A DNA stretch of 64,000 nucleotides from Gammaproteobacteria bacterium. Lineage in GTDB: Bacteria; Pseudomonadota; Gammaproteobacteria; UBA4575. Positions 56,959 to 64,000 of this stretch are shown piece by piece; position 1 is the stretch's first letter; the number at the start of each line of letters is the position of its first letter. The notes below the pieces were generated by a model. The model made no database searches. It was not told where the DNA came from and saw only the letters and a list, made by a program, of their open reading frames with translations. The stretch is taken from the NCBI GenBank assembly GCA_014075255.1, contig CP046178.1:705616-769615 (forward strand). The letters run 5' to 3'. A program made the position numbers and the translations under genes.

Positions 56959-57216
56959 ATGGAAGCATTAATGCCATTGATTATGCAGCTTATAAGTGGA
57001 GCTGTAGGCGGAAACATTATTGGAGCTCTAGCTAAGAAACTTAGCTTAGGGTTTCTCGGTAACACAGTCGCTGGACTGGTTGGCGGTGGATTAGGCGGAC
57101 AATTGCTTGGCGGGATGCTTGGTAGTGGAATGGTCGGCGAAATAGGTGTGGCTGCAGGTGGTGGCGGTATTGTGATGGTCATCATTGGCTTAATTAAAAG
57201 CATGATGGCGAAATAG
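56959..57216 (+). CDS. Glycine-zipper small membrane protein (GlsB/YeaQ/YmgE-like)
   Basis: 85 aa, Gly-rich, with two hydrophobic helices. Confidence 0.4.
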   Translation: MEALMPLIMQLISGAVGGNIIGALAKKLSLGFLGNTVAGLVGGGLGGQLLGGMLGSGMVGEIGVAAGGGGIVMVIIGLIKSMMAK

Positions 57217-57410
57217 GTCGACACTAGCTAAAGTAGAAATCTATTCTCGCATGCATCGTAGGGCGTTTATGATTCATAGACGCCTTACTCGTTACTAAGG
57301 ATCGTAGTCAATTAAGAGTCCAAATTAGTACCCTTACCTATCCAAACCTAGCACTTACTAACTTGCCTTTTCAGGCACTTTGCACTCTTTAGAGTGCTCA
57401 TTATTAAAAC

Positions 57411-57680
57411 TTATCGTCGACCACCACTACGGTTATCATTTCTTGGCCGTGCTTCGTTTACTCTTACACTACGACCTTGAACATCGGTTTCGTTGATCGC
57501 ATTAATTGCAGCTTCACCTTGCGCATTATCTGACATTTCAATGAACCCAAATCCTTTCGATCGACCAGAGTCTCTGTCCATAATAATATTTGCACTGGAG
57601 ACCTCTCCATGAGCTGCAAATAAATCACGAAGTTCATCTTCTGAGATACTGTAAGGTAAGTTACCGATATAAATATTCAT
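57411..57680 (-). CDS. RRM-type RNA-binding protein
   Basis: RNP2 'IYIGNL' and RNP1 'KGFGFIEM'. Confidence 0.8.
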   Translation of the reverse strand: MNIYIGNLPYSISEDELRDLFAAHGEVSSANIIMDRDSGRSKGFGFIEMSDNAQGEAAINAINETDVQGRSVRVNEARPRNDNRSGGRR

Positions 57681-58040
57681 TTTTTCTCCTAATTACTCAA
57701 ATCACTATGCGAACTGTAAAAATTACATCGCCAACAAAGCAGTTCACAACTTTGGCGACAATAAAAAGGTCGGGTCAGACTTGAATACATAACTTAAGAG
57801 AAACTTAATAGTGCCTAGGAACGAGTGAGTACAAGGAATATAAGTAGGGATTTCTTTAGATAGTTACAAATAAGACGAACAGAGCCAGATACGGAAATAT
57901 TAAACTATGTGCTATGACCTAAATGTGCTTGAATACAAAATTGATATAATCATTAACAGATTAGATAGTGCACGAAACAAGCATAAAAGTCTATGTTTAC
58001 GCATTTCCAAGTGTTTCCTATTGCCCCAAATTACTAATAT

Positions 58041-58595
58041 TTACTTGCAACGCAATACATTCCACTGTCCGCTAAGCGGATGAGGTTGCCAAGCATAATC
58101 ATCATCCGCAACTTTTATCCAATATGGAACTCCGGCTTTACGCCAAGGGTCGAACACAATGCCTTCTGACCAGTTGGACTCTGCTGCATAAATTACTACC
58201 GTATTATGTTCACGCAATTGGCTACCAAGGCGAGCAACCAACCAGTCAAACTTTAATGAACTAGTATGCAATTCGCGTAATTTTGTATGCAAATCTTCAG
58301 CCCAGTGACAACATAAACCTCTTTGACGAAACCCCGTATTGACTAACATGTTGTGGTACAAAGCAGGGCTAGCCATATCATATTCATCCGCAAGTACAAT
58401 CGCCGTGCTAATTAATACGCGCGATGTTTGACTTGCATCGGTTACTAGAACTTCTGCCGATAAAGCATTTATAGCTTGTGTAAAATCTTCGACTTCACTA
58501 TCAATATTTTCAGGTGTAGGCACATGTGAGCAAGCTGTAATAACTATAACAATAAGCAAGTAACCTAACAGCCTCAATTGCTTAAGTTTAGGCAT
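58041..58595 (-). CDS. Hypothetical lipoprotein
   Basis: Lipobox 'ITACS' and no recognised domain. Confidence 0.35.
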   Translation of the reverse strand: MPKLKQLRLLGYLLIVIVITACSHVPTPENIDSEVEDFTQAINALSAEVLVTDASQTSRVLISTAIVLADEYDMASPALYHNMLVNTGFRQRGLCCHWAEDLHTKLRELHTSSLKFDWLVARLGSQLREHNTVVIYAAESNWSEGIVFDPWRKAGVPYWIKVADDDYAWQPHPLSGQWNVLRCK

Positions 58596-58636
58596 CAGAA
58601 AATAGAAGTGCAGTAGCTTATTTATATGAAAAATAA

Positions 58637-59041
58637 CTAGTCAGGTTTAATAGCGTACCGTCCGCTACCGATTAACATTATCACTAAACTGATTAATAAA
58701 TAGAAAGCTTGAAGCTCTAATCTCCAACCGCCATGTTCTGTCAAACTTAACAGATCATTCATATGCACCAAGCCGATGGCTAGTAGCATATTTATAAATA
58801 TTAGAAATCCACCAAATCGCGAATAAATCCCCAAGATAATTAGTAATGGCGCAACAATTTCACCTACATATACGCCATAAGCAAAAATGGGGTGCATTCC
58901 TACTCCTTCAAGCTGGTTTTTAATAAAACCAAGTGCTTGCAAATCAACCAGTTTTGCCACGCCATGAAACAACATTAGCATACCAAGTGTGACCCTCAGG
59001 ATAAACTTGGCTAGGTCTTCGGTTCGATAAATGCTACTCAT
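58637..59041 (-). CDS. DoxX-family membrane protein
   Basis: 'LRVTLGMLMLFHGVAKL' and about 4 TM helices. Confidence 0.7.
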   Translation of the reverse strand: MSSIYRTEDLAKFILRVTLGMLMLFHGVAKLVDLQALGFIKNQLEGVGMHPIFAYGVYVGEIVAPLLIILGIYSRFGGFLIFINMLLAIGLVHMNDLLSLTEHGGWRLELQAFYLLISLVIMLIGSGRYAIKPD

Positions 59042-59253
59042 AGGTACCTTAATAATTGCAGTTAATATTCGAATGATCTTTAGTATACAATTCTAAAATT
59101 CGTCATCAATTTATTAGATCTTATCGCTTTTTAAGTTCCACACATATCGACACATTATAATAGCCACTAACTAGGCTTGGAACATAAAACTACTTGTATG
59201 GTTCTGGGTCTATATCTTTATCAATCTAAAATAATGCTTAAATTATAATAAAA

Positions 59254-59790
59254 ATGAAAATACTCGTCAGAACAACCCTATTTAGATCAACTATATTGCT
59301 TTTCCTTTTATCGATTAGCGGTATTTTCTCGACCAATCTATGGGCAAAAGACCCTGCTAGAGTGATTGCTGGGTGGGTAGAAAAAGTGAGGATCGAAAAT
59401 CAAGAATTTGATGTGAAAGCTAAATTAGATACCGGTGCACGAACCTCTTCCATAAATGCTCGAGATATAAAGTCTTTCAAAAAAGATGATGGGCAACGCT
59501 GGGTACAATTTACTCTGATATTAATTGACAGCAAAGATAATAAACATGAAATACAAATGGAAAAACAACGTTCACGCCGTACCAACATTAAGAACCATAA
59601 TGGTGAGCATGATAAACGACATGTAGTAGATATAGAACTATGCTTTAACGGTCGAAAAATAATTACCGAATTCACTTTAGCTGATCGTCGAGAATATATT
59701 TACGATATACTTTTAGGTAGACAATTTTTGAAAAAAACGGCAATTGTTGACCCAAAACGAATTTTTATGACCACCCCAACATGCGAATAA
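59254..59790 (+). CDS. Retropepsin-like 'ATP-dependent zinc protease' family protein (RimK-associated)
   Basis: Signal peptide and 'KLDTGARTSSINA' D-T-G aspartic protease motif. A second half-domain follows. Confidence 0.65.
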   Translation: MKILVRTTLFRSTILLFLLSISGIFSTNLWAKDPARVIAGWVEKVRIENQEFDVKAKLDTGARTSSINARDIKSFKKDDGQRWVQFTLILIDSKDNKHEIQMEKQRSRRTNIKNHNGEHDKRHVVDIELCFNGRKIITEFTLADRREYIYDILLGRQFLKKTAIVDPKRIFMTTPTCE

Positions 59791-59857
59791 AACATTATAG
59801 CCAACAAGCTTCATAAAGCTTAAATGTTACATTCATCCTTACAATTTCTATACACAA

Positions 59858-61381
59858 ATGCATAAATTAGCAGTTCGTTTTTGGTCAATAATATTTATTG
59901 CTATTGGGTTAGCTATTTTCGCGCATAAAGTTTTTCAGTTGGGGATGCCTATCACCCCAGACGCTACAGCTGAAACCTGGACGATACAAGCGCGCTTAGC
60001 TTTTACTGGCAATGGCAGAAACATTAAAGCTTCTATGTCTATACCCAACATAACTCCGGGATATATTAAAATTGATGAACATTACATCTCGGGAGATTTT
60101 GGACTTAATGCAAAAGTAAGTGGCGATAATAAAACGGCAGAATGGGCAAAACGCAAAGCAAGAGGCCAACAAACACTTTATTACCGCACAACCCTAACAC
60201 GCTCGAAGGTCGCTACAAATTGGACAGAAGTTCCAGTTTACCCTAAAGCACCAGAATTCTTTGAACCGTATTCAACAGCAGTTGATAAAATAATTGAAGA
60301 TGTTAGAAGTCAATCTGCCGACACAGCTTCATTTACATATGAGTTAATTGCTCAGCTGCGCTCTTCCAGTGGTAATGAAAATATCGCGCTGATAAAAGAT
60401 TTAGCTAGAACAGACGAACAGTTTGCAAATTTGATTACTAAACTTCTTTCAGTAGCACACATCCCCACACGCAAGCTTTGGATAGTCGAACTTACAGATG
60501 CTGCAAATGACATCATTCCGCAAATTTTGATACAAGCTTACAATGGTGAGAGATGGCTCACTTTCAATCCTAAATCAGGTGTATCAGGCATCCCTGCAAA
60601 TCATTTGATATGGAAAATTGGCAGCGGCCCCCTCTACAAACTAAAAGGTGGAGATGCAGCTGAAATAAAATTTTCCGCAACCAGATCTTTTATTGAGTTA
60701 CTTGAAGTGGCCAAACTAGCTGCTAAAGAAAAAGGCTCTGTTTTAGGAAAATTTACTTTATTTTCACTGCCTGTCCATAGCCAGAACACTTTTAGCTTGA
60801 TCTTAATGGTGCCACTAGGCGCCGTACTCGTAGTATTTATGAGAACGTTTATCGGCGTGCAAACTTTTGGAACGTTCATGCCGATTTTGATTGCAGTAGC
60901 ATTTCGTGAAACGCAATTGTTATGGGGCATAGTTCTGTTTACCGTAATTGTATTTGTCGGATTGCTGATACGTTTGTATTTAGAGAGACTACGCTTGCTA
61001 CTAATACCAAGACTCGCTGCGATATTAGTTATCGTTGTTATATTGATGTTGCTGATTAGTTTTACCACGAGCCAATTAGGATTAGATCGCCTATTATCAA
61101 TTTCGTTATTTCCCATGGTGATTCTTGCAATGACCATTGAGCGTATGTCAATAACCTGGGAAGAAAATGGTGGACAAACTGCAATAATTCAAGGTTTAGG
61201 CAGTCTGCTAGTTGCCTGTCTTGGTTATTTAATCATGACCAACCAACATTTAAATTATTTAATGTTTGCATTCCCTGAATTTCTTCTTGCCATTTTGGGC
61301 ATATGCATCTGGATGGGACGTTACACAGGTTATCGTGTTAGCGAATTATTTAGATTTCGCGACATTAAAACTTCAACATAA
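59858..61381 (+). CDS. Inactive transglutaminase-like domain fused to 7TM domain
   Basis: N-terminal TM helix, an extracytoplasmic domain of about 300 aa and seven C-terminal TM helices. This architecture is known to co-occur with RimK-like ligases. Confidence 0.55.
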   Translation: MHKLAVRFWSIIFIAIGLAIFAHKVFQLGMPITPDATAETWTIQARLAFTGNGRNIKASMSIPNITPGYIKIDEHYISGDFGLNAKVSGDNKTAEWAKRKARGQQTLYYRTTLTRSKVATNWTEVPVYPKAPEFFEPYSTAVDKIIEDVRSQSADTASFTYELIAQLRSSSGNENIALIKDLARTDEQFANLITKLLSVAHIPTRKLWIVELTDAANDIIPQILIQAYNGERWLTFNPKSGVSGIPANHLIWKIGSGPLYKLKGGDAAEIKFSATRSFIELLEVAKLAAKEKGSVLGKFTLFSLPVHSQNTFSLILMVPLGAVLVVFMRTFIGVQTFGTFMPILIAVAFRETQLLWGIVLFTVIVFVGLLIRLYLERLRLLLIPRLAAILVIVVILMLLISFTTSQLGLDRLLSISLFPMVILAMTIERMSITWEENGGQTAIIQGLGSLLVACLGYLIMTNQHLNYLMFAFPEFLLAILGICIWMGRYTGYRVSELFRFRDIKTST

Positions 61382-61387
61382 CGAGCC

Positions 61388-62332
61388 ATGCCCAGCTTTG
61401 TAAGTCCATTACGTTTAAGAGACAAAGGCGTACTTGGTATGAATCAACGCAATAGTGACTTCATTATGCGTTACAACAAGAGAAAACTTTATCCTCTTGT
61501 AGATGGCAAACTGCAAACCAAACAACTTGCAATAAATGCGGGTATAGCTGTACCAAAGCTTTACTCAACAATAAAATATAATCATCAACTAAAAAAGTTA
61601 GAAACACTTTTAGAAGAACATAATGATCTAGTGATTAAACCTGCACATGGTAGCGGTGGTAGTGGCATATTGGTGCTCTCAGGAAAAGTTGGAAAATTAT
61701 ATAAAACCCCTAGCGGCGACTTGATGAGTTCAAATGCCATTAGGCATTACATCTCTAATATTTTATCGGGCATGTACAGTTTAGGCGGAGTGCCTGATCA
61801 TGCTTTTTTTGAATATCGAATTAAATTTGATCCCATTTTTAATCAAGTCAGTTTTAAAGGTGTACCGGATATTCGCATCATTGTATTTCGCGGCGTACCT
61901 GTTTCAGCGATGGTTCGATTACCTACCAGCGATTCAAACGGTAAAGCAAACTTACACCAAGGCGCGATTGGCGTGGGTGTAAATTTGGAAACGGGGTGCA
62001 CGACTCATGGTGTAATAGGAAATACCGCCACAATACTTCATCCTGATACCGGACATTCCATTCAAGGCCTGCAGTTGCCACGCTGGAAAAAGATCTTGCA
62101 AATTGCAGTTAAATGCTCAGATACCGTGGGTTTAGGCTATTTAGGTGTTGATATCGTCTTAGACCGCACGTTGGGCCCGCTTATGCTTGAATTGAATGCC
62201 CGTCCAGGATTGAATGTCCAACTAGCCAATCAACGTGGATTGCTAGCTAATTTAAACACTATTGAGAATTTGGAAAAAATACCTTCTGAAGTAGATCAAC
62301 GCGTAGCCTTCGCACAAGCATTAAATCAATAA
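61388..62332 (+). CDS. Alpha-L-glutamate ligase-like ATP-grasp protein (RimK family)
   Basis: ATP-grasp motifs 'VIKPAHGSGGSGILV' and 'GVDIVLDRTLGPLMLELNARPGL'. Confidence 0.8.
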   Translation: MPSFVSPLRLRDKGVLGMNQRNSDFIMRYNKRKLYPLVDGKLQTKQLAINAGIAVPKLYSTIKYNHQLKKLETLLEEHNDLVIKPAHGSGGSGILVLSGKVGKLYKTPSGDLMSSNAIRHYISNILSGMYSLGGVPDHAFFEYRIKFDPIFNQVSFKGVPDIRIIVFRGVPVSAMVRLPTSDSNGKANLHQGAIGVGVNLETGCTTHGVIGNTATILHPDTGHSIQGLQLPRWKKILQIAVKCSDTVGLGYLGVDIVLDRTLGPLMLELNARPGLNVQLANQRGLLANLNTIENLEKIPSEVDQRVAFAQALNQ

Positions 62333-62358
62333 CTGGAAGAAATACTCAATCATTCTAT

Positions 62359-63720
62359 ATGTCTTCTAACTTCTTCAAATCCATCGCAGCGTTATTTTTA
62401 GTTATTATTCAGCTTAATATTGTTAGTTTTGCTGATGAGCTACAAATCAAGAATGGAGATAACCTAGCAAATGACAAGCAAAGAGAAGAACCAGCTATAG
62501 ATAAAAAAGAATCCGAAGAAGTAAAAGTAGCACCTAACCTTGATCTTAAAGAAGTTGCACCTCCACCCGAGCCAGTAGTAATTACGCCTAAAGCCGAAGA
62601 GAATGATACAAAAACTAATAATGTAGAAACTTCGAACGAAGCAGAAGTTGCAGAAGAAGACTCATACCCCAGTGCGACCGCTGTAAAAGAAAAACCTGAA
62701 CGCAAAAAGTTAGTCATCTTAGGCGCTGAAGTTCCACCGGGCACTTCAACACGTCTCGCATGGTCCCCACAAGTCAGCATATCTGGATTAGCATTACCCA
62801 CACCTGTATTAGTAATTAATGGTGCAAACCCTGGCCCTACTCTATGTCTTACCGGCGCAATTCATGGTGATGAATTAAACGGAATCGAAGTGGTTCGTCG
62901 CGTGATGTATGACATATCGCCTGAAGAATTTAATGGCACACTCATTGGTATACCGATTGTTAATCTTCAAGGCTTTCAACGTGGTTCACGATATTTATCA
63001 GATCGACGTGATTTAAATCGTTATTTCCCAGGCGAAGCAAATGGTAGTTTAGCTTCTAGAATTGCAAGTTCACTATTTAATGAAGTCATCAGCCATTGTG
63101 AATATTTAATTGACTTACATACCGGTTCTTTACGCAGAACAAATCTTCCACAGATTCGCGCCAATATGAACAACCCTAATGTTGCAAAGTTTGTAGAAGG
63201 TTTTGACAAAATTGCGGTAGTTCATCATAGCGGCAATCAAGGCATGTTACGTACTGCCGCAAACAATGCAGGAATTATTGCAATAACAATGGAACTCGGT
63301 GAATCCTTGCGCATTCAAGAAAATCAAATTCTTGCAGGCACTCATAGCGTGAATAGCTTACTCGATAAATTTGAAATGTACCCTCGTGTATTTATCTGGG
63401 GCGATCCTAAACCAGCTTATTATAAATCGACATGGATTCGTGTTGAAAGTGGCGGCATCTTATTCAGCAAGATGGGCTTAGGTGATAATGTTTCAGTCGG
63501 TGATGTACTAGGAATCGTTACTGATCCCATCACAAATCAAAGCGCCGATTTAGCAGCCCCCATCAAAGGTCACATTATCGGCATGGCAGTAAATCAAGTC
63601 GTAATGCCGGGCTTTGCTGCGTATCACATCGGTATAGAATCCAATCAAGAAGATATGACCATAACTGAAGAGGAATCACAGTTGGATGTGAATCCTAATG
63701 ATGAACTAGATCCTGAATAA
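62359..63720 (+). CDS. Succinylglutamate desuccinylase/aspartoacylase (AstE/AspA) family protein with N-terminal secreted linker
   Basis: 'LTGAIHGDELNG' and 'DLHTGS' zinc-ligand motifs. The N-terminus has a signal peptide plus an E/K/P-rich linker. Confidence 0.7.
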   Translation: MSSNFFKSIAALFLVIIQLNIVSFADELQIKNGDNLANDKQREEPAIDKKESEEVKVAPNLDLKEVAPPPEPVVITPKAEENDTKTNNVETSNEAEVAEEDSYPSATAVKEKPERKKLVILGAEVPPGTSTRLAWSPQVSISGLALPTPVLVINGANPGPTLCLTGAIHGDELNGIEVVRRVMYDISPEEFNGTLIGIPIVNLQGFQRGSRYLSDRRDLNRYFPGEANGSLASRIASSLFNEVISHCEYLIDLHTGSLRRTNLPQIRANMNNPNVAKFVEGFDKIAVVHHSGNQGMLRTAANNAGIIAITMELGESLRIQENQILAGTHSVNSLLDKFEMYPRVFIWGDPKPAYYKSTWIRVESGGILFSKMGLGDNVSVGDVLGIVTDPITNQSADLAAPIKGHIIGMAVNQVVMPGFAAYHIGIESNQEDMTITEEESQLDVNPNDELDPE

Positions 63721-64000
63721 CCTCTGCTATTGTTCAACTATAGATATATATTTATCCACAAAGTTTAGCCAGAATCGCAGCTAGAAATACTAATACTATT
63801 TGTTAGGAATAGTCAGTTACGCATAGCTACCCTACAGCACCTCTTTTAGAACACTGCTACCAGCTTAGCTAGCAATAGCACAGACGCTTCAAACCAGCCT
63901 CTGCAAAATATCTTTTATTATGATTACTTCAGGTCTTAGCGATGGATTCCAATACAATCACTTCATTTAGGCACTTAGCACTGAAAGATACTCTGCTAAA

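Follow-up and report, generated by a model that had tools for sequence, protein, structure and literature searches.

The rloABC operon of Pseudomonas aeruginosa was named and studied by Lormand et al. (mBio 2025; PMC12239564). It encodes RloA, with a signal peptide and a DTG motif, RloB, with an inactive transglutaminase domain and a seven-transmembrane (7TM) part, and RloC, an ATP-grasp protein of family TIGR02291. We describe here a four-gene cassette in a 64,000-nucleotide stretch of DNA from a marine gammaproteobacterium (contig CP046178.1, positions 705,616 to 769,615 of the forward strand), called 'the window' below. Its first three genes belong to the same three families, in the same order and on one strand, and to them is added a co-oriented gene for a secreted AstE/AspA-type hydrolase, designated 'gene 4'. 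The cassette is a variant of the Rlo system described in 2025, and it is the fourth gene that sets it apart; nothing known is overturned by it.

In P. aeruginosa, Rlo affects biofilm formation, cell shape, and how well the cells survive hypoosmotic conditions and tolerate beta-lactams (PMC12239564). The RloA proteins, of which there are three paralogues, are secreted; they form retropepsin-like dimers whose substrate channel is positively charged, and two RloA crystal structures have been obtained. Their published activity is on alpha-linked Glu runs: in vitro, reporters with 8 or 10 consecutive Glu were cut, and those with 6 or fewer were left uncut. In hypoosmotic medium the triple rloA mutant does not survive; it also has defects in biofilms, in cell shape and towards beta-lactams, and deletion of rloB or rloC suppresses these defects. 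The phenotypes of the mutant (cell shape, beta-lactam sensitivity, hypoosmotic lysis) were attributed to possible peptidoglycan defects, and the authors expect a post-translationally polyglutamylated periplasmic substrate (PMC12239564). These genetics imply that RloB and RloC jointly make something harmful unless RloA removes it.

Other systems share part of this design. In the RimB-RimK (RimABK) system of ribosomal protein S6, an ATP-grasp glutamate ligase is likewise paired with a retropepsin-like protease that cuts poly-alpha-Glu. That system is wholly cytoplasmic and acts on RpsF, whereas in the window the protease and gene 4 have predicted signal peptides, a 7TM protein is present, and the ligase fails the RimK and S6-ligase models. 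The cyanophycin system (CphA, cyanophycinase and CphZ; PMC9974463) also clusters a polymer ligase, a polymer peptidase and an AstE/AspA-family hydrolase of the fragments; CphZ, however, is cytoplasmic and specific for beta-Asp-Arg and beta-Asp-Lys, whereas the gene 4 protein, which is predicted to be exported, carries a linker and a tail. By sequence and fold, gene 4 is closest to DoeB/EutE (N-acetyl-L-2,4-diaminobutyrate deacetylase) and to the structures 3CDX, 3NA6 and 2QJ8, all with the same zinc ligands. Unlike gene 4, they are about 330 amino acids (aa) long, without signal peptide and linker, and align from gene 4 residue ~127 onward; no ectoine-utilisation genes lie near gene 4.

In eukaryotes, tubulin polyglutamylation is carried out by TTLL ATP-grasp ligases, which are opposed by deglutamylases of the M14 cytosolic carboxypeptidase type. 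There too an ATP-grasp Glu ligase faces a zinc hydrolase of M14-like fold (RloC has a weak TTL match, gene 4 a distant M14 match), but this is an analogy only, with no orthology shown and with different compartment and substrates. The Pfam families of the cassette were reportedly defined by Iyer et al. in 2009, in a comparative-genomics paper on amidoligases, where the four-gene form may already stand; no description of it was found in the searchable literature. Neither the Rlo paper (PMC12239564) nor the RimB paper mentions a gene of the gene 4 type.

Genes 1 to 3 of the cassette

The cassette consists of four open reading frames (ORFs) on the + strand, which occupy 59254-63720 exactly, as an earlier note on this DNA had it:

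59254..59790, + strand: rloA, secreted retropepsin-like aspartic peptidase, 178 aa (PF05618, E 1.9e-35)
59858..61381, + strand: rloB, N-terminal transmembrane (TM) helix, periplasmic inactive transglutaminase-like domain and 7TM bundle, 507 aa (PF14400, E 1.1e-45; PF14402, E 1.3e-95)
61388..62332, + strand: rloC, cytoplasmic RimK-related ATP-grasp ligase, 314 aa (PF14397, E 6.4e-87)
62359..63720, + strand: gene 4, secreted AstE/AspA-superfamily zinc hydrolase of the COG3608/DoeB-like branch, 453 aa (PF24827 AstE_AspA_cat, E 6.3e-43)

The cassette is bounded upstream by a divergent DoxX gene, 212 nt away, and downstream by a DeaD helicase gene that starts 222 nt past gene 4; it is therefore four genes long. 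Opposite-strand ORFs inside the four genes had no support. Evidence for an operon comes from the intergenic gaps (67 nt between rloA and rloB, 6 nt between rloB and rloC, 26 nt between rloC and gene 4) and from the lack of a convincing internal terminator in the cassette, where the scan was not above shuffled expectation. In Alkalimarinus coralli the gap between rloC and gene 4 is 2 nt.

Genes 1 to 3 are rloA-rloB-rloC, the rlo (retropepsin-like osmotic-stress-tolerance) operon, in that order on one strand. All four domain assignments of the earlier note were recovered with Pfam and NCBIfam. Its description of the first three genes as experimentally uncharacterised is outdated, since genetics, RloA crystal structures and in vitro polyglutamate cleavage have been reported for the rlo operon (PMC12239564).

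The RloA family, PF05618, is the Pfam 'Zn_protease', now named RimB-like. The top NCBIfam match of the window protein was RloA3, with 131.7 bits (equivalog cutoff 210), and the RloA and RloA2 models were also matched. RloA aligns with the crystal-structure sequences 9G58 and 9G59 at E 8e-18 (about 1e-17), its catalytic D-T-G motif at residues 59-61 included; K57-L-D59-T-G, R122 and R145 are aligned with conserved K/R and catalytic residues in both. From the K-x-D spacing, K57, R122 and R145 would correspond to the polyGlu-coordinating residues K46, R114 and R137 of P. aeruginosa. Hydropathy gives a single N-terminal hydrophobic segment, residues 3-27, which reads as a signal peptide and is followed by NLWA and, past the putative cleavage site, KD. 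The C-terminus is TTPTCE; the near-terminal Cys is kept in relatives and in the 9G59 sequence (KPTC), and RloA of close relatives is likewise Glu-terminated. The window holds one RloA, compared with the three paralogues of P. aeruginosa, and no further Rlo or AstE paralogue was found within its 64 kb.

For RloB, the best NCBIfam match was 'osmotic stress tolerance membrane protein RloB', with 452 bits ('exception' cutoff 900). In its topology, an N-terminal TM helix leads into a loop of ~280 residues, and a helical bundle makes up the C-terminal part. Across 59 aligned sequences, not one Cys or His of the periplasmic domain is invariant, which fits an 'inactive' transglutaminase. RloB was modelled with AlphaFold2 (AF2; pLDDT 76.9), and its periplasmic part matches 3ISR, a transglutaminase-like structure (E 1e-8); a structural search of the PDB with the 7TM part gave no match. 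The bundle (residues ~305-507) carries invariant charged residues, namely R329, R350/E351, R372/E376, R385, E428/R429, E436 and E474.

Both RloA and RloB thus fall below the narrow cutoffs of the named NCBIfam models (RloA, RloA2, RloA3 and RloB). The cutoffs are very high and presumably tuned to close relatives of the Pseudomonas proteins, and the shortfall shows divergence rather than membership of a different family.

RloC passed the TIGR02291 model (alpha-L-glutamate ligase-like) with 440.5 bits, above the cutoff of 314.2, and weaker Pfam matches were obtained with RimK, YheCD, GSH-S and TTL (TTL, E 6.5e-4). Hydropathy indicated no TM segment. The possibility, raised in the earlier note, that RloC is an ordinary RimK acting on S6 was rejected, as the protein scored 22 bits on PRK10446 (cutoff 331) and 48.6 bits on TIGR00768 (cutoff 143.4). 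None of the four cassette proteins has a Glu run longer than 3, and none is therefore a direct RloA substrate.

Linkage of gene 4 to rloABC

RloB was used to scan one genome per GTDB species, which yielded 80 loci with RloB identities of 43-94%. At every one of these loci long enough to show all three genes, rloA, rloB and rloC were found together and in the same order, which bears out the conserved module of the earlier note. Gene 4 could not be called at 11 loci, which were too short. Of the 69 evaluable loci, 46 have it immediately after rloC and co-oriented, 2 have it co-oriented just before rloA, 3 have it upstream in divergent orientation, and 18 lack it within the flanks. Gene 4 therefore adjoins rloABC at 51 of 69 loci, in three arrangements. 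The co-conservation on which the earlier note had staked its reading holds to that extent; the linkage is lineage-specific.

Presence of gene 4 follows RloB similarity: it was found at 47 of the 49 evaluable loci with at least 50% RloB identity, and at 4 of the 20 below this value. Its lack at the other 16 of these distant loci, together with the three-gene operon of P. aeruginosa, indicates that gene 4 is not essential to the system. It is an accessory of certain lineages, optional and not part of the core. Carriers belong to Oleiphilus, Hahellaceae, Oceanicoccus, Marinobacteraceae, Porticoccaceae, Spongiibacteraceae, Ectothiorhodospiraceae, Thiotrichaceae and Abyssibacter, and they also include the cultured Allohahella marinimesophila, Allohahella sp. 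A8 and Alkalimarinus coralli. The nearest genome relatives of the source of the window are uncultured Thiotrichales and Gammaproteobacteria metagenome-assembled genomes.

No substitute fourth gene recurs at the loci that lack gene 4; unrelated genes flank them, namely purD and those for a DegS-like protease and a CoA-transferase. At one such locus (L083, 6500-8023), the next gene after rloC encodes a 507-aa protein with RLAN (PF14401) and RimK-like ATP-grasp domains, a second amidoligase beside the rlo operon. Two gene 4 copies look broken: that of locus L018 (9226-10420) is seemingly frameshifted or split, with motif and catalytic domain in different frames, and at locus L019 (12485-13861) the motif-bearing frame has just 140 codons. 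These copies could reflect pseudogenisation or assembly error.

The reverse search was a metagenome scan with the gene 4 alignment. It gave 80 loci, of which 57 were evaluable and 23 too short. At 17 loci rloABC was directly upstream of the gene 4 relative, as in the window; at the other 40 evaluable loci, where the relative had 50-64% identity, no rlo gene lay within 3.5-8 kb. These unlinked relatives retain the signal peptide, the linker motif and the Glu-ended tail described below. The unlinked clade (L100-L147) has a conserved neighbourhood of its own: upstream is a gene for a 575-aa Nudix and MBL-fold fusion protein, and downstream are genes for an EamA-like transporter, for a secreted protein of 185 aa and for an aminotransferase.

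A neighbour-joining tree of the catalytic domain, rooted with an outgroup, has three parts: an upstream-linked clade (same strand or divergent), a stand-alone clade, and a large downstream-linked clade within which one unlinked group is nested. Between the upstream-type and the downstream-type members lies the stand-alone clade, so that linkage was gained or lost more than once. Gain or loss at least two or three times supports a functional connection between gene 4 and rloABC.

Architecture of the gene 4 protein

Within gene 4, the following parts can be told apart:

62359..62433, + strand: signal peptide, residues 1-25, predicted cleavage after SFA (IVSFA, then DE), hydropathy peak at residues 5-23
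62434..62709, + strand: disordered acidic E/K/P-rich linker, residues 26-117 (41% E+K+P, net charge -10, AF2 pLDDT <50)
62524..62574, + strand: short linear motif VAPNLDLKEVAPPPEP, residues 56-72, conserved inside the otherwise variable linker
62710..63642, + strand: catalytic domain and C-terminal beta domain, residues 118-428 (confident AF2 model)
63643..63717, + strand: disordered acidic C-terminal tail ending in GELDPE, residues 429-453 (net charge -10; pLDDT <50 from residue 438 to the end)

The top PDB sequence matches of gene 4 were 3CDX, DoeB (6TWL, 6TWM), 3NA6 and 2QJ8, with E values from 1e-16 to 1e-14. The AF2 model is confident over residues ~118-433. Foldseek matched it to DoeB 6TWM (2.7e-23, TM-score 0.77) and also to 3CDX, 3NA6 and 2QJ8 (TM-scores of 0.74-0.78 with the DoeB, 3CDX and 2QJ8 chains); CphZ 8EIN (2e-15), AstE, aspartoacylase and M14 carboxypeptidases followed, progressively weaker. 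Gene 4 nevertheless belongs to none of the named enzymes. It is not DoeB proper (TIGR02994, 78 bits, cutoff 402.7), nor AstE proper, the succinylglutamate desuccinylase (TIGR03242, 29.6 bits, cutoff 305.65), nor AspA proper, the aspartoacylase (NF002601, 31.6 bits, cutoff 180). CphZ (~15% identity, TM-score ~0.6, no cyanophycin genes at the locus) is a mechanistic precedent only.

The zinc ligands H169, E172 and H254 and the catalytic E312 are invariant in 94 family members from all genomic contexts, as are R211, R217, N220, R221 and six further arginines. On these alignments the enzyme is very likely active, because the zinc triad, the catalytic Glu and the R...NR carboxylate-binding motif are all kept. 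A loop at residues 202-215 (62962-63003), NLQGFQRGSRYLSD, has 8 of its 14 positions invariant in alignment A1 and 4 more conserved at 90% or above, and is modelled with pLDDT <50 despite this conservation. It may be a mobile active-site lid bearing R211.

The export and the long E/K/P-rich linker claimed in the earlier note are both borne out, by the hydrophobic N-terminus and by the composition and low pLDDT of the linker. The N-terminus is predicted to be a signal peptide, or else an uncleaved signal anchor. Most of 49 aligned orthologues have an equivalent hydrophobic segment, and in many it is followed by an AxA-like cleavage site. The region before the catalytic domain varies from 48 to ~370 aa among orthologues.

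The linker motif follows the pattern (V/I)APN(L/I/V)DLKEVAP at residues 56-67, continued by PPEP, and A58, P59 and L63 are invariant (alignment A1). It is carried by 49 of 55 downstream-linked and 28 of 34 unlinked family members, and is absent from upstream-type members and from nearly all diverse representatives. Since the 104 motif copies represent 95 DNA versions in which every synonymous codon is used, selection acts on the motif at the protein level. In a six-frame translation of 2.3 Mb, 108 of 110 matches fell in the gene 4 family, to which the motif is exclusive, and it was not found in other proteins. On docking of the motif onto the enzyme, AF2 was uninformative or negative (motif pLDDT ~52).

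Possible roles of gene 4 and surroundings of the cassette

That gene 4 acts in the Rlo pathway is, in our view, an evenly balanced proposition; our confidence in any specific chemistry is lower. In the proposed scheme, RloC would act in the cytoplasm as a RimK-related ATP-grasp ligase and form an acidic product, whose most likely type is poly-alpha-L-glutamate; RimK, the relative of RloC, makes free poly-alpha-L-glutamate. RloB, through its 7TM part and its periplasmic inactive transglutaminase-like domain, would be needed for the product to act in, or reach, the envelope. The product would be harmful on accumulation, and secreted RloA would cut its long Glu runs. Gene 4 would then serve as a periplasmic exo-hydrolase for what RloA leaves, either short oligo-Glu fragments or a residual N-acyl-Glu stub, and by releasing free glutamate would complete the turnover of the product. 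All four genes would be co-transcribed, gene 4 being an extension of the operon. The nature of the RloC product, the export role of RloB and the substrate of gene 4 are what we infer in this scheme.

AstE/AspA enzymes split the N-acyl bond of a C-terminal acidic amino acid whose alpha-carboxylate is free. This chemistry and the conserved R...NR motif are the grounds for proposing N-acyl-Glu or short oligo-Glu as the substrate of gene 4, and the failure of RloA on runs of 6 Glu or fewer leaves a niche for an exo-acting enzyme. Gene 4 and RloA share a predicted compartment, the periplasm, and the linkage of gene 4 in three arrangements supports a process shared with rloABC. CphZ offers a precedent: this member of the AstE/AspA family is clustered with a polymer peptidase and with a polymer synthetase that contains an ATP-grasp domain, and it hydrolyses the dipeptide products (PMC9974463); by analogy, we propose that the role of gene 4 parallels that of CphZ in cyanophycin breakdown. 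The membrane-located glutamyl-type system imagined in the earlier note agrees in its general idea with the publication, but the gamma-linked product that it allowed for is without support, the published activity being on alpha-linked Glu.

Several observations weigh against a role of gene 4 in the pathway, or against the chemistry proposed for it. The characterised P. aeruginosa operon is described with three genes, gene 4 not among them, and even for Pseudomonas no in vivo product of RloC has been named (PMC12239564). Gene 4 is missing from 18 of 69 evaluable rlo loci, and from 16 of the 20 with RloB below 50% identity. Conversely, 40 of the 57 evaluable relatives have no rlo gene nearby, and four more divergent members of the secreted type stand alone. 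The tree carries no support values. DoeB, the closest characterised relative, deacetylates N-acetyl-diaminobutyrate and not a glutamyl substrate, and no substrate-specificity residue of gene 4 could be assigned. The earlier suggestion of a 'dedicated' de-glutamylase or deacylase is therefore too strong in that word, given the rlo loci without gene 4 and the unlinked relatives, while the linkage does support a shared process.

The observations on unlinked members could also be read to mean that gene 4 is independent of Rlo, being a general periplasmic scavenger of N-acyl amino acids, dipeptides or osmolyte-derived compounds whose adjacency to rloABC is due to drift or shared regulation. Most sampled members outside the downstream-linked clade do stand alone in unrelated neighbourhoods; the signal peptide and the Glu-ended tail are retained whether a member is linked or not; the linker motif is kept within the downstream clade, its nested unlinked clade included; and the characterised relatives DoeB and CphZ are catabolic. 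Yet drift can hardly account for an adjacency found at 51 of 69 evaluable RloB loci and in several named gammaproteobacterial families, nor for three arrangements with very short or overlapping junctions in separate linked clades. We consider this explanation unlikely.

A shared operon could also be explained through peptidoglycan homeostasis rather than breakdown of the RloC product. Gene 4 would then be a periplasmic cell-wall peptide amidase or carboxypeptidase, comparable to the M14-type murein peptide amidases that act on gamma-D-Glu stem peptides. The attribution of the triple rloA phenotypes to possible peptidoglycan defects (PMC12239564), the predicted periplasmic location of gene 4 and the M14 carboxypeptidases among its weaker structural neighbours are all compatible with this, and with its long Pro/Glu-rich linker the enzyme, if anchored, could extend as far as the wall. 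Its top sequence and structure matches, however, are N-acyl-amino-acid deacylases (DoeB, 3CDX, 3NA6) and not peptidoglycan hydrolases; Pfam detected no peptidoglycan-binding domain in gene 4, and no murein-related neighbour recurred at the examined loci. A role in the cell wall is thus doubtful, more so than that of a scavenger.

The C-terminal tail of gene 4 raises a different question. Its length and sequence vary across the family, yet a terminal Glu is far commoner than expected, as these counts indicate:

Close homologues of gene 4: 115 of 117 (91 of them ending in DPE)
Complete locus orthologues of gene 4: 41 of 47
Diverse 50%-identity representatives with a long N-terminal region (secreted-type): 46 of 86
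Distant short cytoplasmic-type relatives: 2 of 24
Background ORFs: 5.5% of 1,813

The binomial probability of 46 in 86 is 5e-35, independence being assumed. The terminal Glu does not depend on rlo linkage, being equally present in unlinked members. The tail recalls those of RpsF, the substrate of RimK: known RimK acceptors end in DNADE and GDSEE, and many tails of the gene 4 family end in EDSE, DSEE or ESEE. In chemical terms, Glu at the C-terminus of a protein is an N-acyl-L-glutamate, so that the tail could serve as an acceptor for a Glu ligase or as a pseudo-substrate of the enzyme itself; either is improbable.

The gene 4 protein would, on the first of these possibilities, be a target of glutamylation, its tail being extended by RloC, as that of RpsF is by RimK, and trimmed by RloA; on the second, it would be regulated by its own tail lying in its N-acyl-Glu site. 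This is highly unlikely: the Glu ending of the secreted type, which exceeds 85% in close relatives, the RimK-like acceptor ends and the polyglutamylated periplasmic substrate expected by the Rlo authors would suit it, but RloC is cytoplasmic and gene 4 exported, the tail is equally present in members not linked to rlo, the P. aeruginosa operon is described without gene 4 (PMC12239564), and AF2, with tail pLDDT <50, gave no sign of docking onto the active site. We give as little credence to the broader notion that the gene 4 family is the missing physiological partner of Rlo, be it as a protein polyglutamylated at its C-terminus by RloC and trimmed by RloA, or as an RloB-tethered deglutamylase restrained by its N-acyl-Glu-like tail. 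That notion rests on the RpsF-like Glu-ended acidic tail and the family-specific linker motif; if true, either version would for the first time identify an in vivo substrate or regulator in a polyglutamylation cycle of the bacterial envelope.

Returning to gene 4 as a hydrolase of RloA leftovers, repeated recruitment of a second periplasmic hydrolase, from a family that acts on N-acyl bonds, independently supports an Rlo product with a C-terminal acidic amino acid. Gene 4 is also a concrete lead, and a biochemical handle, on the Rlo substrate, and the four-gene form is present in the cultured Alkalimarinus coralli and Allohahella marinimesophila.

Outside the four genes, one feature of the sequence may be relevant to their expression:

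59042..59253, + strand: AT-rich intergenic region between the divergent DoxX gene and rloA, the presumed promoter region

Promoter-like matches in it (for instance 59062-59091) were no commoner than in shuffled sequences, and no promoter was assigned. An Rfam search of 57000-64000 for RNA elements gave zero matches. The upstream genes for DoxX, a 184-aa protein and an RRM protein were considered as parts of the system and rejected; they are kept only in close relatives, which is plain synteny. The gene for the 184-aa protein (58041-58595, - strand) adjoins the DoxX gene (58637-59041, - strand), divergent from rloA, and is conserved there in close relatives only. Its product has no Pfam or NCBIfam match and a lipobox-like N-terminus that reads VITAC.

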